From positions 15,071-79,070 of the forward strand of contig DAIEHA010000002.1 in assembly GCA_027355945.1 (NCBI GenBank): DNA of 64,000 nt. Reading direction: 5' to 3'. Of the stretch, positions 1 through 41,740 are shown piece after piece (position 1 is the first letter of the stretch; each line of letters opens with the position of its first letter). This stretch comes from Candidatus Parcubacteria bacterium (lineage in GTDB: Bacteria > Patescibacteriota > Minisyncoccia > UBA6257 > 2-01-FULL-56-20). The position numbers were made by a program, and so were the translations under genes. The notes beneath the pieces were generated by a model. That model saw only the letters and a list, made by a program, of their open reading frames with translations, did not search any database and had not been told where the DNA came from.

Positions 1-1694
1 TGCGCGCGAACGTGAGAACCGCGGAAGCCGCAAAGAAAGGCATGGCTCCCGCGCTCGCCATCGCGTTCGAGGGAGGTTCCGTGACGGGACTCCTTGTGGT
101 GGGTCTTGCACTTCTTTCAGTCGCAGGATTCTATGGCGCAACACATGACATCCCGGCGCTCATCGGCCTTGGATTCGGTGCAAGCTTGATCTCGGTGTTT
201 GCGCGCCTTGGGGGAGGCATCTTCACGAAAGGTGCTGACGTAGGCGCCGATCTCGTGGGGAAGGTGGAGGCGGGCATCCCGGAGGACGATCCGAGGAATC
301 CTGCAGTGATCGCCGATAACGTCGGTGACAATGTGGGGGATTGCGCCGGCATGGCAGCCGATCTTTTTGAGACGTATGCAGTGACGGCCATCGCCGCAAT
401 CATCCTTGGGAATCTCGTGTTCCCGGGCGTCACCGCGATGCTCGGCCTGCCTCTTATGATTGGAGGCATTTCGATCATCTCCTCGATCATCGGCGTGTTC
501 TTTGTCCGTCTCGGGAAGAACGGCTCTATCATGGGAGCTCTGTATAAGGGGCTCATCGCCTCGAGCGTTCTTTCGCTCATCGGCTTCTGGTTCCTTGCAG
601 AGAGCTACTCCGGTACGACGATCGTGGCATCCCATCTTTTCTGGCCCATGTTCATCGGCATCGTAGTGACCGCGCTCATCGTGCTCATCACCGAATACTA
701 CACCTCCAAGAGCTTCCGTCCCGTTCGTTCGATCGCGCAGGCGTCGACCACCGGGCATGGAACGAACATCATCACGGGTCTTTCGGTCGGCATGGAATCC
801 ACCGCGCTTCCCGTCATCGTCATTGTTGCGGGTATCTTCTCGGCCTATGCGATAACGGGGATCTACGGTGTCGCGCTTGCCACGATGAGCATGCTTTCGA
901 TGGCGGGGATCGTGGTGGCGATCGATGCATTCGGTCCCATCACCGATAACGCGGGAGGAATCGCCGAGATGGCGGGTCTTCCTGAGGACGTGAGGAAGGT
1001 GACCGATGCCCTTGATGCGGTGGGCAATACCACGAAAGCGGTGACCAAGGGATATGCCATCGGTTCCGCCGGACTTGCTGCGGTGGTGCTCTTCTCGTCG
1101 TATGTCCAATCGCTGCAGAATCATCTCGGCGGCAAAACGATCAATTTCGATCTTAGCAACCCCCGCGTGATCATCGGACTTCTCATAGGTGGGATGATTC
1201 CGTATCTTTTCGCATCGATCTCCATGCGCGCGGTCGGCAAGGCCGCCGGGAGCGTGGTTGAAGAGGTCCGCCGCCAGTTCCGTGAGATACCGGGTATCAT
1301 GGAGGGAACGGCAAAGCCTGATTATGCGAAGAGCGTCGACCTCGTGACGTCGGCGGCGATCAAAGAGATGATCGTGCCCGCGCTCCTTCCGGTGCTTCTT
1401 CCGATCGCCGTCGGGTTCCTCCTCGGACCTATCGCGCTCGGAGGGCTTCTTGTCGGATCGATCGTCACGGGCATATTCGTTGCGATCTCGATGACGTCCG
1501 GAGGCGCTGCATGGGACAATGCGAAGAAATACGTCGAGGAAGGCAACTTTGGCGGGAAAGGTTCCGAGGCGCATAAAGCTGCAGTGACAGGGGATACGGT
1601 GGGCGATCCCTATAAGGACACTGCTGGCCCCGCGATCAATCCTGTGATCAAGATCATCAACATTATCGCACTGCTCCTCATTCCATTCTTGTAA
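1..1694 (+). CDS. hppA: Membrane-bound H+-translocating pyrophosphatase (V-type PPase), C-terminal ~560 aa; 5' end lies outside the window
   Basis: Frame of ORF 12..1694 is open back to position 1. Carries the [18 protein letters not shown] and [12 protein letters not shown] signature motifs of H+-PPases. Polytopic hydrophobic protein. Confidence 0.9.
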
Positions 1695-11866: not shown

Positions 11867-12262
11867 TTAGTCGACGGGGATCTCCAGGAAGTGCAGGCGC
11901 CTTCTCCGGAAGGAATATGCAATGGATCTGCCGCTCCTGTCGATGGTGATATTGGTCAGCGTGCCTTCCCGACCGCTTATCAGGTTTCTGAGCCGAGCAG
12001 CTTTCTGCTCCGAGGGCGCAATGATGGCGACCCCGTCCACTTCAAGGATCCTGTCCCCAGCTTCGATGATGCCCGCAGCCGGAGTGTTGGGCTGGACCTT
12101 GGTTACGAAGAGGCCGTATCCATGGTCAACCGGACGAATATCGATGAAGACACCGATGCCCATCTGATCGAGCAGGCCGACTTTCGCAGCAACGAGGATC
12201 AAGGGTATTGCGATGTACGCAAGTACGCATGCGCCAATGATATACGGAACTGCGCTGTTCAT
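11867..12262 (-). CDS. PDZ-domain membrane protein
   Basis: ORF 11867..12370. The internal start MNSAVPYII follows AAAGGGG. TM helix, then a PDZ-like GLFVTKVQPNTPAAGIIEAGDRILEVDGVAI segment. Confidence 0.6.
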   Translation of the reverse strand: MNSAVPYIIGACVLAYIAIPLILVAAKVGLLDQMGIGVFIDIRPVDHGYGLFVTKVQPNTPAAGIIEAGDRILEVDGVAIIAPSEQKAARLRNLISGREGTLTNITIDRSGRSIAYSFRRRRLHFLEIPVD

Positions 12263-12559
12263 GAGATCCCCTTTCTTTGGGTTGCGATTTTTCCGAGGCT
12301 TCGGGAAGCATAGCAATGTTTTTCTTGTTTGAAAAGCCGTCAATGTCGGCAAAATAGGCGTTCGTATCATATCCGCACCTTTATCCGCAGATGGCGATCC
12401 GCGCCCTCCTTCTCGGCGAACGAAGCGTCGGGCGCAACCATATCCTCGGCAGCACCGCTCGTCGCGACCGGACCGCTCGCGCCATAAGTACGGTCCATGA
12501 ATGGGAGGTTTTTACTCGCAGAGAATGCGGAAGATATAAAGGGATTGAGAGTGCGGTAT

Positions 12560-12583
12560 GCTCAAAACCCAACAAGGGGTGCC
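12560..12583. repeat. Direct repeat copy of the tRNA-His 3' end plus trailer (left copy)
   Basis: gctcaaaacccaacaaggggtgcc matches 24629..24653 gctcaaaatccaacaggggggtgcc (2 mismatches, 1 indel), same orientation. Confidence 0.6.
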
Positions 12584-12616
12584 CGGGTGGAGGAAGTCAG
12601 GACCTGTTTCAGAGAG
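12577..12616. repeat. Conserved intergenic motif, copy A (GGGTGCC-N3-GTGGAGGAAG-YCRGGAC-YTGTY)
   Basis: Aligns with copies at 13201..13240 and 14316..14354. All lie between consecutive minus-strand genes. Confidence 0.55.
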
Positions 12617-12617
12617 T

Positions 12618-13073
12618 TTAGCGCAATTGTTCCCAATATCCTTTTTCCCTAACCTTCGCTTCTATTTTCGCTTTCAGTACTGTGATATCCATAGAATCCG
12701 GAGACGGAGATGCCTCCTGTTCTGCGAGAGATGCCCGAAGAGAATCAATTTCTTTTTCAAGCGCTTCAAATTTATTACGCCGGGATGCGTCGCGATCCTC
12801 CCTCTCTTTACGAGACGCCAACCATTGATTGACTTCGAGATCCGTTTCAAGTGCTTTTTCGTGCGCGACATCAACTGGGGAGATTTTTCTCTCGAAGAGC
12901 TTTCCGGAGAGTGCTCTATCGAGAAATCCGCTGCCGTTCTTGAGATCGGCACGGAATTTGAATTCCTCATCGGATTCTTTGCGTGAACGCTGCATGCGGG
13001 CTTGCCAGGACTCCTCGCTTTCGTTGGTATGTTTCCAACTTTCCGATCCGCCCATAGGAAAATTTTGGGACAT
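12618..13073 (-). CDS. Hypothetical charged coiled-coil protein
   Basis: 151 aa, E/K/R-rich, no TM. Codon pattern consistent with coding. Confidence 0.45.
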   Translation of the reverse strand: MSQNFPMGGSESWKHTNESEESWQARMQRSRKESDEEFKFRADLKNGSGFLDRALSGKLFERKISPVDVAHEKALETDLEVNQWLASRKEREDRDASRRNKFEALEKEIDSLRASLAEQEASPSPDSMDITVLKAKIEAKVREKGYWEQLR

Positions 13074-13200
13074 AATAAAATCATATCATAAGGTCAAACT
13101 TCCTTTAGGGATATATCAAATCAGCCCCATAAAATTTATCCAAAAAATCGCTGGATCAGAGGGGTGTGCCCGAACCATCGGTTCAAATAAGAACCACTTT

Positions 13201-13240
13201 GGGTGCCTTAGTGGAGGAAGCCGGGACTTGTCTGATGAGT
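13201..13240. repeat. Conserved intergenic motif, copy B
   Basis: GGGTGCCTTAGTGGAGGAAGCCGGGACTTGTCTGATGAG; same orientation and core as copies A and C. Confidence 0.55.
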
Positions 13241-13273
13241 GGATGACGAAAAGGAGGACCTCAAGCAGGAGTT

Positions 13274-14194
13274 CTATGGGGTGATGCTAAACGGAGAGCT
13301 GAATGCGTTTGTAGCGCCATAGCCAACCACCACTTCATAGTTATTACCAGGGGGAACATTGGACGGCACTGTCCAGAGATAATTTCCTACATAGCTCCCC
13401 GTCGATGCCGGAGCATCGCTCACTATTCCGTATTGGTCGCCACTCGACGCATTTATGAGATTGATCGAAACAGTGGTCAGGCCGGAGGAGTTCCATGAGA
13501 TTCTTTCCTTTTCCCCCACCCTCCATAGCGACCCCTGGATCGGCGAGACTATCTGGATCGAGGCCTTTGATTGTGACGCATTCTTTGTGGAACCGGAGGG
13601 CGTTGTTACCGCAGGGAGGGTTGTCGAAGAAGAGGTGGCAATACTCGGTAGGATACCTCCCGAACTCGTTGTGTTTGTGGAAGATGTCGCGAGGGGATTC
13701 GCATATTCTTGAGCGATTTTTTGCTCTTGTTGCTGTGCGTATTGATTTTGTTGTCCAGTTACATAGAAACTTATCGCAAAATAAAGGGCGCACAGAACGA
13801 ATGTCGCTATGATTTTGAAGGCAACACTACTGCCGAGACGATCGGAAAAATCATCATGATTTTTCTCCGGTGGCAACGGATCGTCGCCGTATTGATTTGG
13901 GCCCGCTGTCCCAGACCGAAGGAGAAGGCCCAGAAGGAGATAGACATTGAAGACAGGGACGAGCATGGCGAGCACATACAAGCCTGATTTCCCGAGGTCG
14001 TGGAAGCGTCGGAAGGTTATAAAGATCGTAAAAATAAAAACGACGATATAAAAAAGGGATGCAACAAGCCCCGCTACAATAAAATTGGGAATAAGAACGG
14101 AAGAAATCAAATAAATACCGCCTGTAGCAACAACGGCCAATGCGACGCTCCAAATAAGGAAACGCAAACGGCCGATTCGACCTCCAATTTCCAT
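13274..14194 (-). CDS. DUF805-like membrane protein with Ser/Thr-rich linker and C-terminal extracytoplasmic beta-sandwich-like domain
   Basis: 306 aa. N-terminal RRFHDLGKSGLYVLAMLVP resembles the DUF805 (YhaH-like) family. Several TM helices, an S/T tract, and a C-terminal IQIVSPIQGSLWRVGE...YEVVVGYG domain. Confidence 0.55.
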   Translation of the reverse strand: MEIGGRIGRLRFLIWSVALAVVATGGIYLISSVLIPNFIVAGLVASLFYIVVFIFTIFITFRRFHDLGKSGLYVLAMLVPVFNVYLLLGLLLRSGTAGPNQYGDDPLPPEKNHDDFSDRLGSSVAFKIIATFVLCALYFAISFYVTGQQNQYAQQQEQKIAQEYANPLATSSTNTTSSGGILPSIATSSSTTLPAVTTPSGSTKNASQSKASIQIVSPIQGSLWRVGEKERISWNSSGLTTVSINLINASSGDQYGIVSDAPASTGSYVGNYLWTVPSNVPPGNNYEVVVGYGATNAFSSPFSITP

Positions 14195-14315
14195 GTTTTT
14201 ATTATAGCAAACGCCCTCGCCGAAAATTTTGCCCTACGCCGCATTTTTACTTATCGGTCCAAACTTGCATCAGGGTCCTCCCTGTAAGTCCCCTACAACC
14301 CATCGAATTTTGGGT

Positions 14316-14354
14316 GGGTGCCTTGATGAAGGAGGTCAGAACCTGTTCGGTGAG
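14316..14354. repeat. Conserved intergenic motif, copy C
   Basis: GGGTGCCTTGATGAAGGAGGTCAGAACCTGTTCGGTGAG. Confidence 0.5.
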
Positions 14355-14377
14355 ATAAATCCCTCTTTTGGAGAAAA

Positions 14378-14406
14378 TAAAATACCCGCCAAGCGGGTAT
14401 TTTATT
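14378..14406. terminator. Bidirectional rho-independent terminator
   Basis: AAAATACCCGC-CAA-GCGGGTATTTT perfect hairpin flanked by A and T runs, directly 3' of the stop of the minus gene at 14412. Confidence 0.55.
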
Positions 14407-14411
14407 GCTTA

Positions 14412-14753
14412 TTACTTTGTGCTCGTTGCTTGCGGGGCATTTTGATAATATCCTCGCATCATGCCGCCGGGCCCGTAATAATAGGTCGGGGCTCCCGCAG
14501 ACTGGGTGGGAGCCGCGTTTTGGCTCTGATAGTAATATCCACCCATCATCGGCATATAGCCGTAGGGATAAGGAGAGCCGCCATAATAGCCATTTTCCAT
14601 CATGCCGGGCCACATGCCATATCCGTAATAGCCAAGGGTAGTTTTGAACTCACCCACTTTGACGCCCATACAGAAGACCACGATCAAGATAAGAATGCCG
14701 AGGACCCAGCGAAGCAATTTATGATGACCGTCTTCGTGCGTATGTTCTTCCAT
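14412..14753 (-). CDS. Small Met/Tyr/Gly-rich membrane-anchored protein with His-rich N-terminus (possible metal-binding)
   Basis: ORF to 14873. The internal start MEEHTHEDGHHKLL precedes one TM, then a GYYGYGMWPGMMENGYYGG...MPMMGGYYY tail. Divergent from csoR. Confidence 0.5.
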   Translation of the reverse strand: MEEHTHEDGHHKLLRWVLGILILIVVFCMGVKVGEFKTTLGYYGYGMWPGMMENGYYGGSPYPYGYMPMMGGYYYQSQNAAPTQSAGAPTYYYGPGGMMRGYYQNAPQATSTK

Positions 14754-14810
14754 AGTAATTAATTTTTTGTTGGCGACCTTTATCCTAAGACGACAGTACA
14801 TTATGTATAA

Positions 14811-14825
14811 TACCCCTATAGGGTA
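14811..14825. promoter_or_regulatory. CsoR-type operator box 1 (TACCC-N5-GGGTA)
   Basis: Inverted repeat TACCCCTATAGGGTA overlapping a TATAAT hexamer (14806..14811). Resembles the B. subtilis CsoR box. Confidence 0.55.
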
Positions 14826-14843
14826 TACTGTCAAATACTCAAT

Positions 14844-14873
14844 TTGACACGCGATACCCAGTGGGGGTATCAT
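14844..14873 (+). promoter_or_regulatory. csoR promoter: TTGACA-N18-TATCAT with operator box 2 (14855..14869) in the spacer
   Basis: TTGACA at 14844..14849, TACCCAGTGGGGGTA inverted repeat, TATCAT at 14868..14873. Identical architecture to 21275..21304. Confidence 0.6.
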
Positions 14874-14879
14874 AAGGAT

Positions 14880-15149
14880 ATGGATAAGGTAATAAAGAAA
14901 AAAGCCTTACGAAGGCTTCAGATCGTAAAGGGGCAGATCAAAGGCCTCGAAAAAATGATCGACGATGAAAAGTATTGCATCGACGTTATTACACAATCAT
15001 CCGCTATCAAGCAGGCTCTTTCTGGCGTTGAAGATCTTTTATTAGAGAACCATCTTGCTACACATGTGGCGATGCAAATGAAGAGCGGAGAAAGTAAGAA
15101 GGCGACCGCAGAGATGGTAAAAGTATATAAGCTATCAAAGCGAATATAA
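14880..15149 (+). CDS. csoR: CsoR/RcnR-family (DUF156) metal-sensing transcriptional repressor
   Basis: RLQIVKGQIKGLEKMIDDEKYCIDVITQSSAIKQALSGVEDLLLENHLATHV matches the CsoR-family core with conserved Cys and His ligands. ORF track start is 14844; 14880 chosen (near-leaderless from the TATCAT -10). Confidence 0.8.
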   Translation: MDKVIKKKALRRLQIVKGQIKGLEKMIDDEKYCIDVITQSSAIKQALSGVEDLLLENHLATHVAMQMKSGESKKATAEMVKVYKLSKRI

Positions 15150-15150
15150 T

Positions 15151-15564
15151 ATGAGATCAGTGCTTGCGATCGTGATTATGGTGGCTGCGATCTTCGCTCT
15201 CGTGGCGGGTAGTTTCGCCATGGTCAATATGGGATCCGGCAGTCATACAAACTGTCTTGCGGCGATTCCCGGGAGTCCAAAATGTCTTGGAAGGATGGAT
15301 CTGTTTCAATTCGCAATAACGCATATTAGTACACTCCTCGGCATATCGCTCGGGATCGTCAGTCCAATAACAGCTTTTCTCTTGGCTGCGTTCGCAGTGC
15401 TCGTATGGATCGCAGTTTCTAATTCGTTCAACTTACTGTTGGGTTCCTTGGGCTATTCAAGGGTTTTTATTGAGGCAGAAATAGGTAGCGCTCGTAAGCA
15501 ACACCACTGGATCTCCCTTCTTGAGAAACGCGATCCGTCTTCGTCTTGCGCTATGAACGTCTAA
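15151..15564 (+). CDS. Hypothetical membrane protein co-transcribed with csoR
   Basis: Starts 1 nt after the csoR stop. 137 aa, three TM helices, a Cys pair (HTNCLAAIPGSPKC), and C-terminal SSSCAMNV. Confidence 0.5.
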   Translation: MRSVLAIVIMVAAIFALVAGSFAMVNMGSGSHTNCLAAIPGSPKCLGRMDLFQFAITHISTLLGISLGIVSPITAFLLAAFAVLVWIAVSNSFNLLLGSLGYSRVFIEAEIGSARKQHHWISLLEKRDPSSSCAMNV

Positions 15565-15599
15565 GCGAATCAATCTCGCCGCGTCGTTTATAGCGCCCC

Positions 15600-15622
15600 A
15601 AACCGCATCCCTGCGGTTTTTT
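15600..15622 (+). terminator. Rho-independent terminator
   Basis: AACCGCA-TCCC-TGCGGTT followed by TTTTT. Confidence 0.55.
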
Positions 15623-15822
15623 CGTTGCACATAAATTCATCGGTCTATTGCCATGCATAAAAGCAAAAAGGTCGTTATCAGTAAAACAGAGCCATTCTTC
15701 ATCATCCTGACACTTGTCGGTGCGTTCGCGTTGTTTACATAGCAAACGTTGCGGATGGCGCAATATCACATGAGTGCGCCCCCTCTCCAGTAAAGCACTA
15801 CCACTATAATCTCCCAATCCAA

Positions 15823-16314
15823 ATGAATAGAAAACCAACGTTAGAAGAGTTCCTTAAAAAAATTGAATCAACAAAAGAAAAGGCGGGCGTTGATCTGTCG
15901 ACGGCTGAAGATCTGAGCATCGCAGTCATGAACCTCATAAGCCTCGAAGAGCATTTTTTCTTCACGGGAATAAAAACGAAAAAAGATGAGTACTTCGACA
16001 CAGTGCAAGAGATCCGGGAGTTGCGTAAACAATTTCTCACGCAATTAATGCCTAAGCACGAAGGGGAAACGTGGTGCATCTCAAAACATCTTCTTTCCGC
16101 CACGATGCGCCTTATTGAAGTGGGCAATAAGTTGCAATCGGAAGGCATAAAAGAAAAAGCGAAGCAAACATTTGAAGGAGCCTATAAGGTCTACTCGATC
16201 TTTTGGGCCCTCAAATTGGATCTCGTTAATGGCAGCGAGATTAAGGAAGCGGCAAGGGGCGGCTCCGACTTAGAAACAATTATCGCTAAGATGGCCGATT
16301 GCTGCAATGAATAG
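15823..16314 (+). CDS. Hypothetical cytoplasmic protein ending in DCCNE
   Basis: 163 aa, helical and charged, no TM. C-terminal vicinal cysteines. Confidence 0.45.
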   Translation: MNRKPTLEEFLKKIESTKEKAGVDLSTAEDLSIAVMNLISLEEHFFFTGIKTKKDEYFDTVQEIRELRKQFLTQLMPKHEGETWCISKHLLSATMRLIEVGNKLQSEGIKEKAKQTFEGAYKVYSIFWALKLDLVNGSEIKEAARGGSDLETIIAKMADCCNE

Positions 16315-16331
16315 TAACAACGATAAATAAA

Positions 16332-17297
16332 ATGGAACACGAAACACATCATCACGAACAAGAAACAGAGTTAATGGAAGAGCTTCTTCCGGAGACGGTG
16401 GTAAAAAGCCATAAAAAAGACTTGTTCTTACCACTCAGTATTCTTGCAGTAGCACTGCTTATCGCTTCAGCATTCGTCTATCTTGGCAATCAGAGAACGG
16501 CATCGGGGCGCAGCACTCCTATACAAAATATCTCAGCCGCTACATTGCAGGAAAAGGTAATTCCGGCAAACGGCGTGATATTGCCGGTTCGCTGGGGCGA
16601 TCTCGGGAGGCAGCTTGTATCGGCGGGTGTCATTAATGAGCCGCAATTCCTCGCGCTCTATGCGCAGCGCGGGGGGTTATCGCCCGACATGAAGGCGCTT
16701 CTTGATAATGCAGATAATGGGAATCTCATTATTACATTGCAAAATTCCGGCACCATATTAAATCTTTTATGGGCGCTTGGCCTTGGGAACAATAATCCAA
16801 TCCTTACGAGCGGGCCCATGGAGAATCCTCAATACGGAGGCGCAAAGAACTTTGCTTCGACTGGCGGTTGGACGCTTTCAGTCGGCAATGCGATGAACCA
16901 TTATAGCGCTCATTCGTTCGTAACGCTTACCGCCGATCAGCAAGCACGTGTGGTGCGTGTCGCACAAAACATCTATCGCCCGTGCTGCGGAAACTCCACG
17001 TTATTCCCGGATTGCAATCATGGCATGGCGATGCTTGGACTCCTTGAGCTCATGGCATCGCAGGGCGTTTCGGAAGCGGACATGTACAAGGCCGCGCTCG
17101 CGGTGAATTCGTATTGGTTCCCTGATACCTATCTCACACTTGCAACCTACTTCCAAAGCCAGGGCGTCGATTGGAGTGCTGTCGACTCAAAGACGGTGCT
17201 TGGTGCTGGATATTCAAGTGCTCAAGGATACCAGCAGATAGTAAATAAAATAACTCCAGTGCAGGCGCAATCGTCGGGCGGCTGCGGGGTGCAATAA
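16332..17297 (+). CDS. Membrane-anchored extracytoplasmic protein with His-rich N-terminus and C-terminal SGGCGVQ tail
   Basis: 321 aa. MEHETHHHEQETE N-terminus, single TM, Cys-rich PCCGNSTLFPDCNHG motif. The C-terminal tail is shared with the next ORF. Confidence 0.55.
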   Translation: MEHETHHHEQETELMEELLPETVVKSHKKDLFLPLSILAVALLIASAFVYLGNQRTASGRSTPIQNISAATLQEKVIPANGVILPVRWGDLGRQLVSAGVINEPQFLALYAQRGGLSPDMKALLDNADNGNLIITLQNSGTILNLLWALGLGNNNPILTSGPMENPQYGGAKNFASTGGWTLSVGNAMNHYSAHSFVTLTADQQARVVRVAQNIYRPCCGNSTLFPDCNHGMAMLGLLELMASQGVSEADMYKAALAVNSYWFPDTYLTLATYFQSQGVDWSAVDSKTVLGAGYSSAQGYQQIVNKITPVQAQSSGGCGVQ

Positions 17298-17313
17298 CCA
17301 AAATTGAAATCTT

Positions 17314-17505
17314 ATGAAATCAACGAATGACAATTTCTGGTTATTCATAAGCATCGGATTGTTTGTAATCATCGTCGGAACTGCGGGAGCTTATGCATTT
17401 CGGTCATTCAGTACGAATGCCGTATCACAAGAGAACGCCACTGTCGTTGCGCCATCACAAACCCAAACACCTTCATCCGGCCAAAGCGGCGGATGTGGGG
17501 TCTAA
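17314..17505 (+). CDS. Small membrane-anchored peptide ending in SGGCGV
   Basis: 63 aa with one TM (FWLFISIGLFVIIVGTAGAYAF). Its C-terminus QSGGCGV parallels the upstream protein's SSGGCGVQ although encoded by different codons. Confidence 0.45.
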   Translation: MKSTNDNFWLFISIGLFVIIVGTAGAYAFRSFSTNAVSQENATVVAPSQTQTPSSGQSGGCGV

Positions 17506-17510
17506 TCGCT

Positions 17511-18374
17511 ATGGAAACAATAATCAGTACATCACTCATTGCGGCATTTATCGCAGGCATCGCGGCCTTGTTCGCGCCATGCTGCGTTACGGTGCTTCTG
17601 CCCGCATACTTCGGTTCGATCTTTCGCACGAGGCGGAAGGTGTTCCTCATGACATTCATTTTCTTCCTCGGCATCTTGACCGTATTCCTTCCGTTAGGAC
17701 TCGGTTTCTCGATGCTTGGACAGGTGTTCAGTCGTTATCATCGCGAGATCTTCACGGTCATTGGTATGGTACTTTTCGCTTTGGGAATCTCACTTCTCTT
17801 AGGAAAGAGGCTCCCTATGCCGAAATCAATGCGCCTCAAACCGGAACTCACTGGAAATGAGAACGCTGGATCAGTGTATCTTCTTGGCATCTTCTCCGGC
17901 ATCGCAACCACTTGTTGTGCGCCGGTACTCGCGGGAGCGCTCGCGCTTTCGGTGTTGCCGGGTTCGTTCATCTGGGGAATTATCTACACACTCGCCTACG
18001 TGCTCGGCATGGTGACCCCACTCTTTGTCCTTGCGGCAGCACTTGACCGGACCAAGATGTCCGAACGTCTCCTTGGCGTGCGGAAGCCGTTGGAATTCAC
18101 GCTATTCGGAAAGGCCATTCGCATGAGGATCTCCGACCTCCTTGCGGGACTGACTTTCTCGATCATGGGAGCACTCACGCTCTACTGGGCATCGATGAAT
18201 CAGGTTGCCGTGCATTCGATGTTGCAAGTGAATATCAACATCTATCTCACGCAGCTGAATAATTTCCTTACCCCCTATATCGGGTGGGTGCCGCAATACG
18301 CGTGGGCGGTCATGTTCGTCGGACTCCTCGTAGCGCTCGTGGTGCTTGCTCTCAAGCAATTCAAAAAGGACTGA
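17511..18374 (+). CDS. CcdA/DsbD-superfamily thiol-disulfide transporter-like membrane protein with vicinal Cys pairs
   Basis: FIAGIAALFAPCCVTVLLPAYF parallels the CcdA TM1 motif (SPC-x3-LLP-x-Y). GIATTCCAPVLAGAL parallels the TM4 motif. Both carry CC instead of a single Cys, as in MerT TM1. ORF track start is 17493. Confidence 0.7.
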   Translation: METIISTSLIAAFIAGIAALFAPCCVTVLLPAYFGSIFRTRRKVFLMTFIFFLGILTVFLPLGLGFSMLGQVFSRYHREIFTVIGMVLFALGISLLLGKRLPMPKSMRLKPELTGNENAGSVYLLGIFSGIATTCCAPVLAGALALSVLPGSFIWGIIYTLAYVLGMVTPLFVLAAALDRTKMSERLLGVRKPLEFTLFGKAIRMRISDLLAGLTFSIMGALTLYWASMNQVAVHSMLQVNINIYLTQLNNFLTPYIGWVPQYAWAVMFVGLLVALVVLALKQFKKD

Positions 18375-18392
18375 TTAAAAAAACATAAAACC

Positions 18393-19013
18393 ATGAAAAA
18401 AAATACATCAAACGGTACTATGGCGGTTAAAGTGATCGGCATTTTTGCTATCTCGATATTTATCCTCGGAGGTATCGCTCTACTCAGTTATGAGAACAGC
18501 GACGCAGCACCTCAGGCGGGCGCCACAGGGTCTGGTAGCTTCGGCAGTGCACTCATCGGCAAGCCCGCGCCGCAATTTTCGCTGAAAGATCGCAACGAAG
18601 TCACATACACCCCAGATAGTTTGAAAGGAAAGAATGTGATTCTTTTCTTTAACGAGGGAATTATGTGCTATCCCGCATGCTGGAATCAGATGGTCGCGCT
18701 CGCGACGGATCCTCGGTTTCAAACATCCGATACGATCGCGCTTTCCATCGTGATCGACTCTCCGGATCAATGGCAGTCGGCGATCCAGAAAATGCCGGAC
18801 CTTGGGAAGGCAACCGTTCTCTTTGACACCGATAAATCCATTTCGCAGGAATACGGGATGCTCACCGCACTATCTTCGATGCATTACGGTTCCTACCCAG
18901 GTCATTCGTTCGTGATCCTCGACAAACAAGGGATCGTCCGCTTCGTCTATGATGACCCAGCTATGGGCATTGATGACGATCGTATCGCGGCCGATCTCCA
19001 AACGTTGAAATAG
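18393..19013 (+). CDS. SCO1/SenC-like copper-binding thioredoxin-fold protein
   Basis: Signal anchor. KNVILFFNEGIMCYPACW gives a CxxxC motif after a beta strand, as in SCO proteins. Downstream HSFVILDKQGIVRFVY matches the conserved SCO His region. Confidence 0.65.
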   Translation: MKKNTSNGTMAVKVIGIFAISIFILGGIALLSYENSDAAPQAGATGSGSFGSALIGKPAPQFSLKDRNEVTYTPDSLKGKNVILFFNEGIMCYPACWNQMVALATDPRFQTSDTIALSIVIDSPDQWQSAIQKMPDLGKATVLFDTDKSISQEYGMLTALSSMHYGSYPGHSFVILDKQGIVRFVYDDPAMGIDDDRIAADLQTLK

Positions 19014-19014
19014 C

Positions 19015-19464
19015 ATGCATAGACCGATCACGAAATCCTTTATCGGAGGGTCTATTGCGACGGGCACGCTCATCGCGGCATATTTCGCAATCGTTTCCCT
19101 CATATCGGGATTTGCATTCGCCGGAAGTCAGTTTGTGGAATTCTGGTTCTACTTCGTGGGATTGGCACTCGGCTTCGGCATTCAGATCGGGCTTTACATC
19201 TATCTGAAGCAACTGGTCCGTGGCGCAAGCGGCGGGCCAGTGGTGGCGGTGACGGGGATGACCTCGACCGCCGCCATGGTTGCGTGCTGCACCCACTATC
19301 TCGTGAACATTCTGCCAATTCTTGGAATAAGCGCCTTCGCCTCATTTGTCGGCGAATATCAGGTTCAGTTCTTTTGGGTTGGTATCGCATTCAATCTTGT
19401 GGGTATCGTCTATATTGCAAGTCGAGTTATAAAAGTCAGGGGGAATATGCAGCACATTGCATGA
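19015..19464 (+). CDS. Hypothetical four-TM membrane protein, possibly the N-terminal half of a split ICMT-like methyltransferase
   Basis: 149 aa, hydrophobic. Ends 4 nt into the next ORF, in a different frame. Contains ACCTHY. Confidence 0.45.
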   Translation: MHRPITKSFIGGSIATGTLIAAYFAIVSLISGFAFAGSQFVEFWFYFVGLALGFGIQIGLYIYLKQLVRGASGGPVVAVTGMTSTAAMVACCTHYLVNILPILGISAFASFVGEYQVQFFWVGIAFNLVGIVYIASRVIKVRGNMQHIA

Positions 19465-19748
19465 ACAAATCAAATCTTGCATGGACTGTCCTCTGTGAAG
19501 CACAGAAAGAACATACGCTTGCAATCGCGGGGCCGTATGCCCGCATTCGTCATCCACAATACATGGCATTCATACTTGTTATGCTTGGGTTCCTGTTTCA
19601 GTGGCCGACCATTCTCACGCTTGCTATGTTTCCGGTACTTCTGTGGATGTATGTGCATCTCGCGCGAACCGAAGAGAGAGAAGCGCAAGCGATCTTTGGC
19701 GTGGAATGGAATGCATATGCGGCGCAAACACCCGCGTTCATTCCCTAA
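19461..19748 (+). CDS. Isoprenylcysteine carboxyl methyltransferase (ICMT/PEMT) family C-terminal catalytic fragment
   Basis: AGPYARIRHPQYMAF (the RHPxY motif) and EEREAQAIFGVEWNAYAAQTPAFIP (C-terminal EE...FG..Y..Y motif). Only ~95 aa from the ATG at 19461. Confidence 0.5.
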   Translation: MNKSNLAWTVLCEAQKEHTLAIAGPYARIRHPQYMAFILVMLGFLFQWPTILTLAMFPVLLWMYVHLARTEEREAQAIFGVEWNAYAAQTPAFIP

Positions 19749-19790
19749 TGGAAACGAAACAATAAATCATTGAAATAAAAATCAACACCT

Positions 19791-19966
19791 ATGTTCAGAA
19801 TCTTTAAGAAAAAGTGTCCGATTTGCAGGATGGCACTCGAAGAAGGAAAACAATATCCTGAGGAATTCGGTAAACAATTCTGTTCGGAAAGATGCAAGAC
19901 ACAGTATCAAGAATTAACAAATAAAAAGAAGCAATCGCAACATTCCAGCCATGGTGGGTGTTGTTA
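19791..19966 (+). CDS. YHS/TRASH-domain small metal-binding protein ending in GGCC
   Basis: Hand translation: MFRIFKKKCPICRMALEEGKQYPEEFGKQFCSERCKTQYQELTNKKKQSQHSSHGGCC. C-x2-C...C-x3-C matches the TRASH/YHS pattern. Shorter than 60 aa, so absent from the ORF track. Confidence 0.55.
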
Positions 19967-19979
19967 AGAGTTCAACGCT

Positions 19980-21278
19980 ATGCGGTTATCGTTTCTTTTG
20001 ATCGGACTCGGATTTGTCGCGGTTTTGGCCGTCGGGGGTATTTCGAGTTCTCGTGCAGTAGCTGCAACGGTGGTAGCTACGAGTACTGGCGGCAATGCTT
20101 CGCAAGTCCAGATCAATACGGATAACCAACAGATCGCAGACCTCAACCAAAAAATAGCATCCTACCAAGCGCAACTTCGGAAAGTAGGTGCGGATAAGAA
20201 AACGCTCCAAGCGGCTATTCACGCGCTCGATTTGCAACGCAGCAACGCACAAGTGCAGGTTGCCGTTACCCAACTGCAGATCAACGCAACCCAGGCCCAG
20301 ATCAAACAGTTGGGCGGAGAGATATTGGGAGCGAAGCAGACGATAGCAGGGGATCAGGCGGCGCTCGGAGAATATCTTCAAAGTCTTCAAAAAGCCGACG
20401 ATAAGCCGTTGATCGTGCAGATGCTTTCATCGGGCGGTCTTGTTCAAGCATGGGATGATATTAATGCGACAGTAAAGATGCAAACCGCCGTCCAAAATCA
20501 AATGCAGGCGCTTCGTGTCCAGGAAGACAGCCTTGCCAACTCGCAGACAGTTTCAAAACAGAAACAGGAAGCACTCACATCGCAAAAACAGGCATTGGCA
20601 TCACGGCAGCAATCGCTTATCGCGACGGAACAATCTAAAAGTCAGCTGCTCGCCGAAACCAAGTCGCAAGAATCTGCTTATCAAAAATTGCTTGCCGCGG
20701 CGCACGCGGAGCTCAGTAGCTTCTCGACGTTTACAGAGAACGCGGGCGGATCAAAACTGCTTGCCAATCAGACCAGTTGCGACTCGTGGGGCTGCTATTA
20801 TAATCAGCGTGATTCGGCATGGGGCGCTACTCCTCTTGATGGGACAAAATATACGCTTGCACGCGCAGGGTGCCTCATTGCATCCGTGGCGATGGTGCTC
20901 ACGCATTACGGGTATAAGGATGTGACGCCTGCGACCATCAACTCGAACCCCGATAACTTCGCGGGGTATTCACCCGATCTGCTGCTCGCGTCGATCGACG
21001 TTGACGGTGTGACCGTTATGCGAAAGGCCATCAGGGTGAAAGGTGCCACTGCCGCACGAAAAATTTCAGTTATTGATGCGATGCTTGCGACTGGCCATCC
21101 GGCAATCGTCGGCATGAATGCCCTCGGCGGCACGCATTTTGTCGTACTCACGAGCGGGAGCAATGGTGATTACCTCATGCGCGATCCGTATGTAGCGAAT
21201 GGTAACGGTATCAGCTTCACCTCCTATTATTCATTGAAGGAGATATATAGCATTGCGAAGATCGTGATCGGGAGTTGA
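19980..21278 (+). CDS. Secreted coiled-coil protein with C-terminal C39-like (papain-fold) cysteine peptidase domain
   Basis: Signal peptide, ~250 aa Q/A-rich coiled coil, then SCDSWGCYYNQ...AGCLIASVAMVLTHYGY...GGTHFVVL resembling Peptidase_C39_2 with its Cys and His. PcsB-like architecture. Confidence 0.55.
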   Translation: MRLSFLLIGLGFVAVLAVGGISSSRAVAATVVATSTGGNASQVQINTDNQQIADLNQKIASYQAQLRKVGADKKTLQAAIHALDLQRSNAQVQVAVTQLQINATQAQIKQLGGEILGAKQTIAGDQAALGEYLQSLQKADDKPLIVQMLSSGGLVQAWDDINATVKMQTAVQNQMQALRVQEDSLANSQTVSKQKQEALTSQKQALASRQQSLIATEQSKSQLLAETKSQESAYQKLLAAAHAELSSFSTFTENAGGSKLLANQTSCDSWGCYYNQRDSAWGATPLDGTKYTLARAGCLIASVAMVLTHYGYKDVTPATINSNPDNFAGYSPDLLLASIDVDGVTVMRKAIRVKGATAARKISVIDAMLATGHPAIVGMNALGGTHFVVLTSGSNGDYLMRDPYVANGNGISFTSYYSLKEIYSIAKIVIGS

Positions 21279-21304
21279 CAGTAAATACCCCCTAGGGGTA
21301 TCAT
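21275..21304 (+). promoter_or_regulatory. ATPase promoter: TTGACA-N18-TATCAT with CsoR-type box TACCCCCTAGGGGTA (21286..21300) in the spacer
   Basis: Same hexamers, same 18 nt spacer and same box offset as the csoR promoter. ATG lies 13 nt after the -10. Confidence 0.6.
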
Positions 21305-21316
21305 TAAGAAAATAAT

Positions 21317-23689
21317 ATGAGCCACGACCATATGCATCACAACGAAGGGGCTGTTCGGCAACCGAATTGTGCCTGCGGCAAGAAGTGTTCCGGGTGCTCT
21401 GCGGAAAAACTAGCTGTTAATTGTGGTTGTGATATGGAAGCAAAACAGTTTGAATCCGATATGGATCATTCTTGCTGCCACAATACGCATAATAAAAAGA
21501 CGAGCGCTCCGGCCGTCGCAATGAGTGCGGAGGGAGGATCATATTATACCTGCCCAATGCATCCGGACGTGAGATCGAAAGTGCCCGGTAAGTGTCCGGG
21601 GTGCGGCATGGACCTTATCCTTAAAAAGGGCGAAGTTGCTTCGCAAGGTGATCATGCAAATCATGATATGCAGGCCATGAGCCATATGGATCATGAGGCG
21701 GCGATGACGAGCCCGCAATTGGCGAAGCAGATGGAGCGGGATATGCGTCGCCGATTTTGGATTTCATTCATACTCTCGATCCCGATCTTTCTTTATTCGC
21801 CGGTCGGCACAGCAGTGTTCAAGGTCGCGCTTTGGAGCCCCATCCCAATCAATTGGCTATTATTGATCCTCACCACGCCGATCGTATTTTGGACGGGCTC
21901 GATCTTCATCACAGGGACATACTATTCCCTGAAAGCAAAAAAGCTGAACATGGCGGTGCTTATTGCGACAGGGGTGTTGGCCGCCTATCTTTTTAGCGTT
22001 CTTCTCACCGTTATCGGAAGCCCCGATACTTTTTATGAGGCAGCAGCACTTTTGGTTACCTTCGTGCTCTTTGGCCATTGGATGGAGATGAAGTCTCGGC
22101 GTGGCACTTCGGAATCTTTGCGGGCCCTATTTGATCTTGTGCCGCCAAAGGCAACGGTTATCCGCGATGGTAGGGAGATCTCGATCCCAAGCGCCGAGAT
22201 TATGCATGATGACATTGTAGTAGTGCGGCCCGGCGACAAATTACCGGTGGACGGCGTTGTGACCGAAGGCGAGAGCGCGGTTGACGAGTCGCTCGTTACG
22301 GGAGAATCAATCCCAGTCACAAAAATGATCGGCGACAAAGTCACCGGTGGATCGGTCAACCAAACAGGGACCCTTAAGTTCAAGGCGACGCAGGTGGGTG
22401 CGGAAACCGTCCTCGCGCAGATCATTAAGCTCGTTGAGACGGCCCAGAATTCCAAAGCGCCGGGTCAGCGCCTTGCCGATCGCGCTGCTGGCTGGCTCGT
22501 TATCTTGGCCGTTGGTTCGGGTATCGTGACATTTCTTGGCTGGTATTTTTGGGGCCACACAGGATTCATCACTGCGCTGACATTCGCCATTTCAGCAGTG
22601 GTGATCGCGTGTCCGGATGCTTTGGGGCTTGCGACGCCGACCGCCGTGGCGGTGGGTACTGGTATCGGGGCAAAACATAATATCCTCATTAAAGATGCCG
22701 CGACACTAGAGAACACTTCCAAGTTGAATGCGGTTGTGCTCGATAAAACAGGGACGTTGACGGAAGGGAAGCCAAAGGTAACCGATATTGTTCCACTGAA
22801 TGGTTTTAACGAAGAAGATGTCTTGCGGTATGAGGCGAGCATTGAAAACAATTCCAATCATCCGGTTGCAAAGGCTATCGTGGACGAGGCCGCCAAGCGT
22901 GGCGTTTCTCTCGTGGAGTCTTCGCAATTCGAATCTATCCCTGGCTATGGCATAAAGGCGACCATCCTTGGCAAGCGGGTACTCGCGGGGAATGAACGAT
23001 TGATGACAACGAATGGCGTGGATGTGGTGTCGGCGAGGATGACCATCGACAAGCTTGCGAACGAAGGGAAGACGATCAGCCTGCTTTCCATCGATGAGAA
23101 GATCGCAGGGGTTACCGCCGTCGCCGATACCGTGCGCCCAAGCGCGAAACAGGCGATCAAACGACTCCAAGACCTCGGTATCGAAGTGGCGATGATAACG
23201 GGTGATCATAAAGTCGTCGCGGAAGCGGTCGGAAAGGAGCTTGGCATCAATCGTGTTTTTGCAGAAGTGCTCCCTAAAGATAAAGCGAGTTATGTGAAGA
23301 AACTGCAGGACGAAGGAAAATTTGTTGCGATGGTGGGCGATGGTGTGAATGACGCTCCGGCGTTGGCGCAATCGGACATCGGTATCGCGATCGGCGCGGG
23401 TACTGATGTAGCGATCGAGACCGGTAACATAGTGCTTATGAAATCCGATCCGAACGATATTGCCTCGGCAATCATCCTGAGCAAAGCAACGGTTGCTAAA
23501 ATGAAGCAGAATCTTTTCTGGGCGGCAATCTATAACGTGTCCGCGATTCCCGTTGCGGCAGGCGTATTCGCAGGGATCGGTATCACGCTCCGTCCGGAGA
23601 TTTCGGCGCTCCTAATGTCCGCGTCATCTATTATTGTTGCCACCAATGCGGTGCTCTTAAAGAGAGTCGAAAGTAAGCTTAAAAGCTAA
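21317..23689 (+). CDS. copA: Heavy-metal (Cu+-type) P1B ATPase with N-terminal His/Cys-rich metal-binding region
   Basis: DKTGT phosphorylation site, GDGVNDAP hinge, TM7 YN and TM8 MSASS (P1B-1 Cu+ signature). TM6 motif is CPD rather than CPC. N-terminal [10 protein letters not shown]...GKCPGCGM metal-binding domain plus His-rich stretches. Confidence 0.92.
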
Positions 23690-23723
23690 AAGGTCGCGAG
23701 GTAAATAATTAATTACTATTACA

Positions 23724-23972
23724 TTGCTTTCACTTAAACGGTATGGATGGCTCTGCGTGCTTGGTATCGAAGTGGCCTATGTTGGCTGCATGATCTATCG
23801 CTTTTTCCTGAACGGCGCGGCTCTTAGCTTGCATGCATCACTCTTTGAACTCCTTCCAGGATTTTCATGGGGAATTGGCGGCATGGTCATCGGTGCAATA
23901 GACCTCTTTATCTTTGCATGGATTTTTGCGTGGTACATGGTCTGGATGCACAATACGAGCATCCAGAAATAG
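23724..23972 (+). CDS. Small hydrophobic protein, hypothetical
   Basis: 82 aa, two TM segments. Weak. Confidence 0.3.
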   Translation: MLSLKRYGWLCVLGIEVAYVGCMIYRFFLNGAALSLHASLFELLPGFSWGIGGMVIGAIDLFIFAWIFAWYMVWMHNTSIQK

Positions 23973-24025
23973 TGGTGGATTTCTCCCACATGTCCACACT
24001 TATAAAATGCCCTTTCGGGGGCATT

Positions 24026-24496: not shown

Positions 24497-24628
24497 GATT
24501 TTATTTTACCTTATCCGGAGGTGCATTAAAATCAATATGCATTCATGCTTAAACCAGCCCATTATTTTAAATGAGAGGCTTGGACCTGCAAAAACGCAGA
24601 TGATATAAAGGAATCAAGAACGTTGTAC

Positions 24629-24653
24629 GCTCAAAATCCAACAGGGGGGTGCC
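24629..24653. repeat. tRNA-His 3' end plus trailer; right copy of the direct repeat
   Basis: Matches 12560..12583. Confidence 0.6.
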
Positions 24654-24719
24654 TAACGGGAATCGAACCCGTATCATCGGAGCCACAATCCGAGGCTCTA
24701 CCATTAAGCTATAGGCACC
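24648..24719 (-). tRNA. tRNA-His (GUG) with encoded G-1
   Basis: Manual fold: G-1 plus acceptor GTGCCTA/TAGGCAC, D stem GCTT/GAGC, anticodon stem TCGGA/TCCGA, loop TTGTGGC (anticodon GTG), T arm ACGGG-TTCGATT-CCCGT, discriminator C. Confidence 0.85.
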
Positions 24720-41703: not shown

Positions 41704-41740
41704 GTTCGATCGGATAACAGGTCGTCATCCAAGAAAACAA

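Follow-up and report, generated by a model that had tools for sequence, protein, structure and literature searches.

Direct repeats in a tRNA-His-linked island of Patescibacteria match the last codons of a large serine recombinase gene and are probably recombination junctions of mobile elements

Large serine recombinases (LSRs) such as the integrases of phiC31, Bxb1 and A118 (LI integrase) combine Resolvase, Recombinase and zinc-ribbon domains and act at short attachment (att) sites with a small shared core, attP x attB giving attL and attR as hybrid junctions with one arm from each partner. In serine integrases the zinc-ribbon-domain motif is displaced by 5 bp between the two sites, attB having it closer to the centre (PMC3783163), and a 2014 survey knew of no serine-family integrase with a tRNA-gene target (PMC4383910). 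Crossover within the integrase gene at a tRNA target is a feature of the SSV1-type suicidal integrases of archaea and of IntP of the Myxococcus phage Mx8, tyrosine recombinases whose integration alters or splits the integrase ORF and leaves a C-terminal fragment at the far junction (PMC8371274; PMC4383910); one review describes self-disrupting recombinases as exclusively archaeal (PMC8371274). In SCC composite islands, serine recombinases insert at the 3' end of a conserved gene, and successive elements, some of them recombinase-less, pile up in tandem between direct site repeats (10.1101/336396). Repeated integration at one tRNA gene displaces older elements outward in the tycheposons and tRNA-linked islands of Prochlorococcus, leaving degenerate integrase fragments and repeated att scars in a variable island (10.1101/2020.12.28.424599). 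Integrons, for their part, hold short, mostly single-gene cassettes parted by a recurring site, attC, beside a fixed insertion point.

We analysed a 64-kb stretch of DNA, hereafter the window, in which three copies (A, B and C) of a short motif lie in an island linked to a tRNA-His gene. Comparison with related contigs makes it very probable that these repeats are recombination junctions of LSR-mobilised Patescibacteria elements that insert at the end of tRNA-His, the motif being the P' half-site. The features of the window are:

12437 to 12652, plus strand: LSR gene remnant (tblastn), the last ~57 codons with one in-frame stop, crossing copy A and terminating at the stop codon 12650-12652
12577 to 12617, plus strand: motif copy A, core GGGTGCC plus the putative P' arm, encoding GARVEEVRTCFRE...
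13097 to 13154, plus strand: conserved non-coding Y arm (..TTCCTTTAGGGATATATCAAATCAGCCCCATAAAATTTATCCAAAAAATCGCTGG), by comparison with the Y arms of other loci
13201 to 13246, plus strand: motif copy B, encoding GALVEEAGTCLMSG and a stop, the conserved GTCAGAACC reading GCCGGGACT here
14316 to 14358, plus strand: motif copy C, encoding GALMKEVRTCSVR and a stop, with the GTCAGAACC block intact
12577 to 24653, strand not assigned: tRNA-His-linked island, G+C 0.45-0.54 against 0.55-0.64 in the flanks
24564 to 24649, plus strand: frameshifted LSR 3'-end remnant (tblastn, residues ~503-531, ...NERLGPAK / KNADDIKESRTLYAQNPTGG), ending at the tRNA core
24645 to 24719, minus strand: tRNA-His(GTG), its 3' end reading on the plus strand as GGGTGCC (24647-24653), then TAACGGGAATCGAACCC

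The three direct copies are real, exceed chance expectation and are the only ones in the window. Within the 64 kb a degenerate 32-nt pattern had just three matches, at 12577, 13201 and 14316 on the plus strand, and none in 100 shuffles, in agreement with the three same-orientation copies of the preliminary description. A repeat search recovered the same family, its copies 68-73% identical over 40 nt, and an nhmmer profile built from the three found no fourth copy in the window (next-best E 0.21). The ORF list also bears out their reported position between consecutive minus-strand genes (14412-14873, 13274-14194, 12618-13073 and 11867-12370); each copy is intergenic and precedes the start of its minus-strand gene by 100-200 nt, with a bidirectional terminator at 14376-14406 ahead of copy C. 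Every copy opens with GGGTGCC, indeed the 3' acceptor end of tRNA-His in reverse complement. Near-identical contigs, found by exact-protein look-up, carry identical motifs and are thus uninformative. Besides the three cassettes, the island contains a copper/redox block of a CsoR-type repressor, an HMBD P-type ATPase, DsbD, a redoxin and a C39-like peptidase, but no intact recombinase.

Immediately left of copy A, positions 12524-12579 are 77% identical to positions 24593-24648 adjoining tRNA-His. The preliminary description had taken this as a tRNA-His trailer repeat fused to copy A; the repeat is real, but it is an LSR 3' remnant by tblastn and not a tRNA trailer. Positions 12437-12607 align to residues 484-540 of the LSR encoded at L014:1934-3568 (57 aa, 58% identity, E 2.9e-12), and the window ORF at 12497-12652, MNGRFLLAENAEDIKGLRVRYAQNPTRGARVEEVRTCFREF..., can be compared with the C-terminus of that protein, ...INERFGPAKNAEDIRELRTLYAQNSTRGAWVKDVRTCLLTI. 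At the DNA level 24564-24649 is closely similar to the 3' ends of the L040 and L045 LSR genes, which are intact and read into tRNA-His. The tRNA-His acceptor link and the trailer repeat were the right clue, while the coding nature of the motif lay beyond the earlier reader's view.

By these alignments the motif is identified as the 3' end of an LSR gene, encoding G-A-W/L-V-x-D/E-V-R-T-C-L. The L014 gene is unrecombined and encodes 544 aa with Resolvase (PF00239), Recombinase (PF07508) and Zn_ribbon_recom (PF13408) domains; its ORF runs 13 codons beyond the core, and its final codons are the motif. A second LSR C-terminal half, in L017 (46% identity), ends in a variant of the motif. Across 36 variants, differences from the consensus by codon position numbered 41/27/77, an excess of synonymous change that is modest when whole codons are counted and that comes from a sample biased by the motif-derived patterns used in the collection scans; changes in the V-R-T codons were almost all synonymous. 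A coding check by hand of the three window copies alone gave no third-position bias, the signal emerging only with more variants and the intact gene. In scans with motif patterns outside the window, all matches came from Parcubacteria/Paceibacterota/Minisyncoccia genomes or from metagenome contigs of soil or peat, with no match in the viral contigs scanned. At three of these loci (L010, L018 and L047) a tRNA-His gene is found 1.5-4.5 kb away, oriented relative to the motif as in the window. The LSR family itself is large: 5,103 of 8,000 candidates scored matched at E <= 1e-10, and those with a name were mostly from Patescibacteria. Other members have C-termini that read as antisense T arms (...RGWDSNPRPAG) and may use other tRNAs.

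Sequence comparison among contigs resolved four junction types, interconvertible by swapping arms at a short shared core:

P-core-motif junction: L014 and window copy A
P-core-tRNA junction: L040, L045, L053 and the window at 24.6 kb
x-core-motif junction: L073 and the arrays
Y-core-tRNA junction: L063, L066, L068 and L070

LSR genes abut the core in L040, L043, L045, L053-58 and L064. Intact genes read into antisense tRNA-His beside glyA in L040, L045 and L053-L058, the attR state, and beside other tRNA genes in L043; the LSR/tRNA junction runs ...CAACAAGG, then GGTGCC, then TAACGGGAATCGAACC. Among the 27 homologue sequences read, several end in ...STRGA and a stop, and others run on as a translation of antisense tRNA-His (RGASRESDPYCRCHRAELYH). 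The far junction of integrated elements was not found within 10 kb in L040, L043, L045, L053 and L064, these elements being longer, and was reached further upstream on the L040 contig. One complete element is present on a 103.7-kb contig, where a motif copy at L073:8225 (GAWVEDVRTCLLARA and a stop) lies 13.3 kb from an LSR/tRNA-His junction; the 531-aa LSR body and the displaced 13-aa tail of this 13.3-kb element add up to 544 aa, the length of the unrecombined L014 protein. Alleles of one population, identical in SHMT protein, break at the same point: L063, L064 and L068 diverge exactly at the core, and L068 equals L067 plus 3,505 bp, the extra segment being bounded by the core. In related Patescibacteria contigs, up to 5 motif copies are arrayed between small cassettes.

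By inspection the core reads CG.T.GG-TG-CC.A.CG, the left arms being less clear and that of L073 not fitting; from dyad symmetry we infer that TG is the crossover dinucleotide. On the right, GAACC occupies +12..16 from the core in the tRNA arm and +17..21 in the motif arm, an offset consistent with the 5-bp displacement of the zinc-ribbon-domain motif in serine integrase sites (PMC3783163). The outer recognition block would then sit 5 bp closer in on the host site than on the element site, as in known LSR sites. The three-domain recombinase, the short sites with a small common core and the hybrid junctions are as in known LSR systems. The present sites differ in that a tRNA gene provides the host site with its 3' end, the element site falls within the recombinase ORF, the bacteria are Patescibacteria and activity is putative.

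We propose that in the free element the LSR ORF crosses its own attP, with crossover some 12-13 codons short of its stop, within the core GGG-TG-CC, and that attB would be the tRNA-His 3' acceptor end, which has the same 7-8 nt as the core. Integration would leave the LSR body abutting antisense tRNA-His (attR), its ORF then ending in ...RGA and a stop, and would move the last ~12 codons (core plus TGGGTGAAGGATGTCAGAACCTGTTTG, encoding AWVKDVRTCL) to the far end of the insert (attL). An attP inside the LSR ORF and an ORF changed by integration are as found in the SSV- and Mx8-type integrases. Those are tyrosine recombinases, however, and the LSR is a serine recombinase that would work alike without being a member of that group; moreover only ~12 codons are lost here, and the integrated gene retains all recognisable domains. 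Recombination at these sites by the cognate LSR is putative, and the population alleles that break at the core point to it indirectly.

The three copies could alternatively stem from recombinase genes that decayed in place, or from local duplications, with no site-specific recombination at the motif. In its favour, copy A and the remnant beside tRNA-His are clearly fragments of pseudogenes, and copy B is degenerate. Random decay should leave varied left ends, yet in most of 41 distinct junctions similarity to the motif starts at GGGTGCC whatever the left-hand sequence; with the alleles of one population breaking exactly at the core and the displaced L073 tail completing a truncated LSR to exactly 544 aa, we regard this explanation as very unlikely. 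Still smaller is the probability we attach to an autonomous cassette site, of the integron attC or Xer/dif type, that serves another recombinase and overlaps the LSR tail only secondarily. It would account for single-gene cassette arrays in direct orientation and for the same conserved left arm at most array junctions, as in a self-contained site, and L014 offers a candidate enzyme in a tyrosine integrase (a 366-aa Phage_integrase protein) adjoining the LSR. That integrase was found only in L014 among the loci with proteins scanned or Pfam-tagged, whereas the LSR is the only recombinase consistently joined to the core; an attC-like hairpin and R''/R' boxes are absent, and some cassette genes run with the motif and others against it. 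The preliminary description had proposed cassette boundaries or recombination sites, of which the accreted att scars hold up and the integron-like version does not: the absence of a hairpin or dyad typical of attC, the lack of an integron-type integrase among the proteins scanned or Pfam-tagged at the loci, and the mixed orientation of the cassettes argue against integron attC. Unlike integron sites, which are imperfect palindromes served by IntI between cassettes of common orientation, the site here is conserved in sequence and not in structure.

Structure likewise bears on the proposal, also made earlier, of an RNA processing or stability element or a shared leader. A cis-acting RNA or DNA regulatory element (leader, processing site or operator) common to the small genes would fit the intergenic position of the copies at 100-200 nt from the gene starts. 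At gathering and at permissive thresholds, however, Rfam returned only tRNAs and a weak terminator-driven match beside copy C, with no family scoring even weakly on the motif; single-sequence folds of the three copies on both strands gave z-scores of +0.0 to +1.7, with no attC-like hairpin; and consensus folds (alifold) of 24 variants reached -2.1 and -2.5 kcal/mol on the two strands with 0 compensatory pairs. Orientation and distance to neighbouring genes vary among loci, and the motif is part of a protein-coding gene in L014 and L017, so that a regulatory element is extremely improbable. Rejection of a structured non-coding RNA follows from the same lack of an Rfam match, fold or covariation. 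A degenerate tRNA 3' half is discounted by the missing T-arm pairing and a tRNA-His match of only 7-8 nt, and an Islander-type direct repeat of a tRNA fragment by having only GGGTGCC(T) in common with tRNA-His, the next 30 nt differing from the T arm.

With the repeats taken as LSR recombination junctions, the window can be read as a series of insertions. Copy A is assigned as an attP-type junction (P-core-P'), apparently unrecombined, because it is contiguous with the LSR pseudogene tail. Copy B, the most decayed of the three, appears to be of attL type because no LSR-like sequence lies upstream, and copies B and C would both be attL-type scars within the low-GC copper-resistance island. At the other end, 24564-24649 would be the P arm of an attR-type junction, and the tRNA-His 3' end is the core and B' arm of the attachment site. 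Copy C is probably the distal end of the last-integrated element (14.3-24.6 kb); the stretch from C to the tRNA would then be the most recent element, now recombinase-less, and B and A would bound older cassettes. The 64-kb window holds no intact LSR, only the two pseudogene remnants, and the three copies are therefore probably relics, inert unless the rest of the genome encodes an LSR.

For the arrays, we infer a route in which repeated integration, partial excision and decay would leave several same-orientation tails with cargo cassettes between them. Such layering resembles SCC islands, although the SCC target is rlmH and not a tRNA gene, Ccr belongs to a different group, the SCC repeats are no part of a recombinase coding sequence and the hosts belong to another phylum. 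It also resembles tycheposons, which differ in relying nearly always on tyrosine recombinases and in having scars that are partial tRNA copies, whereas here 7-8 nt derive from the tRNA and the rest from the recombinase tail. More tentatively, and with considerable doubt, the LSR family may run cassette exchange at tRNA-His, with tails and tRNA-side sites as alternative partners and recombinase-less cassettes shuffled integron-like by serine-recombinase chemistry, clipping of the tail acting as a sensor of the integration state that alters recombinase activity or stability.

Novelty would lie in the variant, a candidate-phyla LSR family with a tRNA-gene target and an ORF spanning its own attP that builds cassette arrays; our literature search found nothing specific on such a system in candidate-phyla bacteria. 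To our knowledge few mobile elements have been described for Patescibacteria, and the relics in the window lead to a very large recombinase family, mostly in these tiny-genome organisms. Its putative departures from the textbook are a tRNA-targeting serine integrase, an integration that reversibly removes a conserved tail, and the build-up and shuffling of recombinase-less cassettes at one tRNA. Genes for defence, toxins and metal resistance are found in the cassettes and elements, so the tRNA-His locus is likely a hotspot of strain-level variation. Short, well-defined sites paired with their enzymes are also candidate genome-engineering tools.

Arrays are mostly of attL type (Y arm, core and motif), which the simple attP x attB rule does not predict; speculatively, extra steps could involve alternative attL partners at excision or insertion assisted by a recombination directionality factor (RDF), candidates for which are small neighbouring ORFs such as the DUF5659 and 136-aa proteins. 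The Y arm might be the left half-site of attB, an identification that is weak because the left arm of L073, the one complete element, is unlike it. In other genomes the Y arm directly abuts the core; in the window 46 nt lie between the Y arm and copy B, and positions 13160-13185 within them, a candidate decayed fragment, align weakly with antisense tRNA-His (score 23).

The preliminary description had placed three co-oriented repeats between four minus-strand genes, and both the repeats and their setting were confirmed in full. The degenerate pattern, which opens with the core GGGTGCC, the reverse complement of the tRNA-His 3' acceptor end, matched at 12577, 13201 and 14316 (copies A, B and C) alone, all on the plus strand, and matched none of 100 dinucleotide-preserving shuffles. 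A repeat search recovered the same three-member family, with 68–73% identity across 40 nt, and the suggested nucleotide profile of the three copies found no further copy in the window (next match, E 0.21). A bidirectional terminator at 14376–14406 does lie ahead of copy C, and all three copies sit in the gaps separating these open reading frames (ORFs):

Flanking ORF 1, minus strand, 153-aa membrane protein
Flanking ORF 2, minus strand, 306-aa DUF805/Kre9_KNH protein
Flanking ORF 3, minus strand, 151-aa protein without family
Flanking ORF 4, minus strand, PDZ-domain protein

At L014, a related locus, the motif forms the end of a 544-aa ORF (C-terminus ...NERFGPAKNAEDIRELRTLYAQNSTRG-AWVKDVRTCLLTI, then a stop) whose Pfam domains, Resolvase, Recombinase and zinc-ribbon, are those of a large serine recombinase (LSR). 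Searching with tblastn, we found 57 residues at 12437–12607 of the window that are 58% identical to the C-terminus of this LSR (E 2.9e-12, one in-frame stop), and copy A is therefore an LSR pseudogene tail. LSR residues 503–531 were also found at 24564–24649, frameshifted and ending exactly at the core within tRNA-His (24645–24719, minus strand). Thus the 'tRNA-His trailer repeat' to which copy A was said to be fused is recombinase sequence from a gene's 3' end; the resemblance itself stands, with 77% identity between the 56 nt left of copy A and the 56 nt beside tRNA-His. Another LSR C-terminal half, 46% identical to the L014 LSR by tblastn, ends in a motif variant at L017. Copies B and C encode GALVEEAGTCLMSG and GALMKEVRTCSVR, each followed by a stop, and nothing LSR-like was found upstream of either, the similarity beginning at the core. 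The motif is coding sequence, and this is the central result of the analysis. Across 36 distinct variants, differences from the consensus GGGTGCCTGGGTGAAGGATGTCAGAACCTGTTTG number 41, 27 and 77 at codon positions 1, 2 and 3, changes in the V-R-T codons are nearly all synonymous, and five different codons are used for the leucine. This pattern points to a coding history, the codon-position effect being modest when counted by whole codons and the variant sample being partly biased by the search patterns.

Among the roles first proposed for the repeats, accreted att scars held: on the sequence evidence, they are integration scars composed of recombinase tail. The readings as an RNA element or an attC site did not hold, the motif having neither an Rfam match nor a fold. 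At gathering thresholds Rfam gave only eight tRNAs in the window, and on the motif region itself its one weak match was terminator-driven. No copy was more stably folded than shuffled sequence, whichever strand was taken (z-scores 0.0 to +1.7), and consensus folds of 24 distinct variants reached only -2.1 and -2.5 kcal/mol, with zero compensatory pairs. Descent of the motif from the tRNA-His T arm was rejected, as the likeness ends after the first 7–8 nt, and so was integron-style expression logic, because cassette genes run in either orientation relative to the motif.

The integrated state is preserved elsewhere. At L040, L045 and L053–L058 an intact LSR gene runs into the antisense 3' end of tRNA-His beside glyA, and L043 has the same junction in a different tRNA-rich neighbourhood (...CAACAAGG/GGTGCC/TAACGGGAATCGAACC); the window closely resembles these gene ends at 24.57–24.65 kb. 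When the 103.7-kb contig of L040 was followed upstream, one motif copy came up (L073:8225, encoding GAWVEDVRTCLLARA and a stop), at 13.3 kb from the LSR/tRNA-His junction; the cargo of this 13.3-kb element includes a DUF5659 protein, a reverse transcriptase and an MmeI-type restriction-modification enzyme. The LSR body (531 aa, to ...RGA) and the displaced 13-aa tail sum to 544 aa, the exact length of the unrecombined L014 LSR. This is the signature of recombination between the element site attP and the host site attB where the crossover falls within the recombinase ORF. LSRs of this family are very numerous, with 5,103 matches at E <= 1e-10 among 8,000 candidates scored, the named ones mostly Patescibacteria. 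Among 27 homologues whose C-termini were read, several end in ...YAQNSTRGA, others run on as antisense tRNA-His translation (RGASRESDPYCRCHRAELYH), and further ones retain a tail of D/E-V/I-R-T type. More distant members (P0012, P0023, P0084, P0087) have ends such as ...RGWDSNPRPAG and ...PGSDSNRRPID; their resemblance to antisense T-arm translations suggests that they, too, have an ORF across attP, with other tRNA genes as targets.

Elements with an intact LSR (L040/L073, L045, L043, L053) carry defence-type cargo: a retron-like reverse transcriptase, an MmeI-type restriction-modification enzyme, N6/N4 and D12 methyltransferases, an NYN nuclease and a PBECR2-like nuclease. The small DUF5659 protein recurs in these elements, encoded upstream of the LSR at a distance of a few genes, and is a candidate directionality factor. 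At L014:136–1726, the unrecombined LSR is immediately preceded by genes for a 366-aa tyrosine integrase and an HTH protein, so that two recombinases of different families adjoin each other. Beyond the complete element, at a distance of 3.2 kb, L073:4962–4990 holds an isolated attB-like string (TATTATCGGTGGGTGCCTAACG), in which the Y-arm end and the core are followed by 5 nt from the start of the tRNA arm; it may be left over from an earlier junction.

Among contigs of different samples, those with an identical SHMT protein differ at the tRNA-His locus alone.

Arrangements at the tRNA-His locus (slashes delimit the core; Y arm, conserved non-coding sequence left of the core)
L063, L066, L068, L070: Y arm and tRNA-His, ...ATCGCC/GGGTGCC/TACCGGG, attB-type junction
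L064, L065: a different LSR and tRNA-His
L067, L069: X arm (decayed LSR tail) and tRNA-His
L068: X arm and motif copy, then 3,505 bp of cassettes, then Y-core-tRNA

L067 and L068 are otherwise 99.8–100% identical, and their two alignments share a 20-nt overlap at the core; an assembly artefact is unlikely, since this overlap should be shorter than assembler k-mers (e.g. k141 in some record names). L063 and L068 are 99.9% identical rightwards from 2 nt before a motif core and unrelated leftwards. Such population alleles, breaking at the core, argue that it is a live recombination point. Site geometry was inferred from sequence: the tRNA-side site around the core, CG.T.GG/TG/CC.A.CG, is an imperfect dyad with the non-palindromic centre TG. 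Counted after GGGTGCC, the block GAACC occupies +12..16 in the tRNA arm and +17..21 in the motif, an offset that fits the serine-integrase rule by which the zinc-ribbon-domain motif of attB is closer to the centre than that of attP by 5 bp (PMC3783163). Between CTAAAAAT of the Y arm and CTCAAAAT of the LSR-coding arm there is a comparable shift, of 4 nt; the left half-site assignment is uncertain, because the left arm of the complete L073 element departs from this pattern.

The Y arm (~70 nt, GTTCTATTTCCCGTTAGGGGTAYGCAAAATTAGCCCCATAAAATCTATCTAAAAATCGCC) is strongly conserved left of many motif copies (L063:300–405, L007:6730–6800, L028, L029, L035, L067, window 13097–13154). Its first part resembles a tRNA 3' end in sense orientation (T loop plus CCCGTTAGG) and forms an inverted repeat of the tRNA-His arm where the two abut; the Y arm may be a native trailer, a second att relic or a terminator. 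Between the Y arm and copy B, the 46-nt stretch at 13155–13200 (GGATCAGAGGGGTGTGCCCGAACCATCGGTTCAAATAAGAACCACTTT) may be a decayed core with an antisense tRNA-His fragment, the alignment being weak (score 23).

With one genome per species, a loosened pattern found five loci, three in records named Parcubacteria, Paceibacterota or Minisyncoccia and two in unclassified bacterial MAGs. A second pattern, built without GGGTGCC and scanned on metagenome contigs, gave 28 loci; 16 are true copies, all with GGGTGCC or a near-match, and the remaining 12 lack it and resemble chance matches. Viral contigs gave no match to the motif. Same-orientation arrays with copies 0.7–1.5 kb apart are frequent (five copies in L028, four in L018). 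Their junctions are attL-type (Y-core-motif) or attP-type (LSR tail-core-motif), and the array end at tRNA-His is an attB-type or attR-type junction, attL and attR being the hybrids left by integration. At L010, L018 and L047, where tRNA-His adjoins glyA, the nearest copy is 1.5–4.5 kb from that tRNA gene and is oriented relative to it as in the window. A two-gene module, encoding a 311-aa HTH-Fic/DOC protein and a divergent 100-aa protein, lies between motif copies at differing array positions (L018:3567–4830, L028:2181–3474, L039:430–1723, L038:2403–3440) and looks like a mobile toxin-antitoxin-type cassette. Immediately downstream of tRNA-His and convergent with it, L010:1296–1325 holds a T-arm-like antisense fragment, GGAATTGAACCCGCG.

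The window at ~12.6–24.6 kb has a G+C of 0.45–0.54, against 0.55–0.64 in the rest, and this stretch is bounded by copy A and tRNA-His. The island encodes a CsoR-type repressor, a P-type ATPase with a heavy-metal-binding domain, DsbD, a redoxin and a C39-like peptidase, and contains no recombinase gene. The last element to integrate would be the copper/redox block (~10.3 kb), delimited by copy C and by the LSR remnant at tRNA-His; of its recombinase gene, deletion has presumably spared ~29 codons. Copies B and A would belong to older cassettes, those of the DUF805 and 151-aa genes. Copy A, which retains 57 recombinase codons, reads as an attP-type junction; decay has gone furthest in copy B, where the GTCAGAACC block has become GCCGGGACT. 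As tblastn with the L014 LSR found no intact LSR in the 64-kb window, copies A–C are most likely relics, and probably inert. We speculate that arrays could arise by two routes, both compatible with known serine-integrase rules. Excision might pair attR with a nearer or farther attL, so that resident cassettes are lost from or gained by the recombinase module. Alternatively, attP-type and attB-type sites in direct orientation might recombine and delete the intervening DNA, which would convert the L068 arrangement into that of L067; the reverse, insertion, would require a directionality factor.

Site-specific integration beside a tRNA gene is known as a kind, and chemistry and site logic here are those of large serine integrases. 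Three respects are unusual: the tRNA gene as target, the ORF across attP, and recombinase-less cassettes in tandem. According to a 2014 survey, tRNA genes were not known as targets of serine-family integrases (PMC4383910). A reading frame likewise crosses attP in SSV-type archaeal elements and phage Mx8, but their integrases are tyrosine recombinases (PMC8371274, PMC4383910); one review calls this arrangement exclusively archaeal (PMC8371274). Recombinase-less cassettes build up in tandem in SCC composite islands (10.1101/336396) and tycheposon islands (10.1101/2020.12.28.424599), as here. In mycobacteriophage integration-dependent immunity, a C-terminus clipped by integration can serve as a regulatory switch (PMC9262239). 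Full-text literature searches returned no description of an LSR/tRNA-His system in candidate-phyla bacteria.

Elsewhere in the window, TATAAT-like boxes seen by eye at 14195–14215 and 13074–13110 (minus strand) lie only ~7–10 nt before the ATG of the 306-aa and 151-aa genes, neither of which has a visible Shine-Dalgarno sequence; together these features suggest leaderless or near-leaderless mRNAs. The boxes are absent from the list of a promoter scan of the window. Three tandem units of ~475 nt each at 41584–42626, with a 62-nt core 61–77% identical, probably represent small paralogous genes or a gene with repeated domains. At 40683–40810 lies a pair of 56-nt direct repeats with 93% identity, 72 nt apart.
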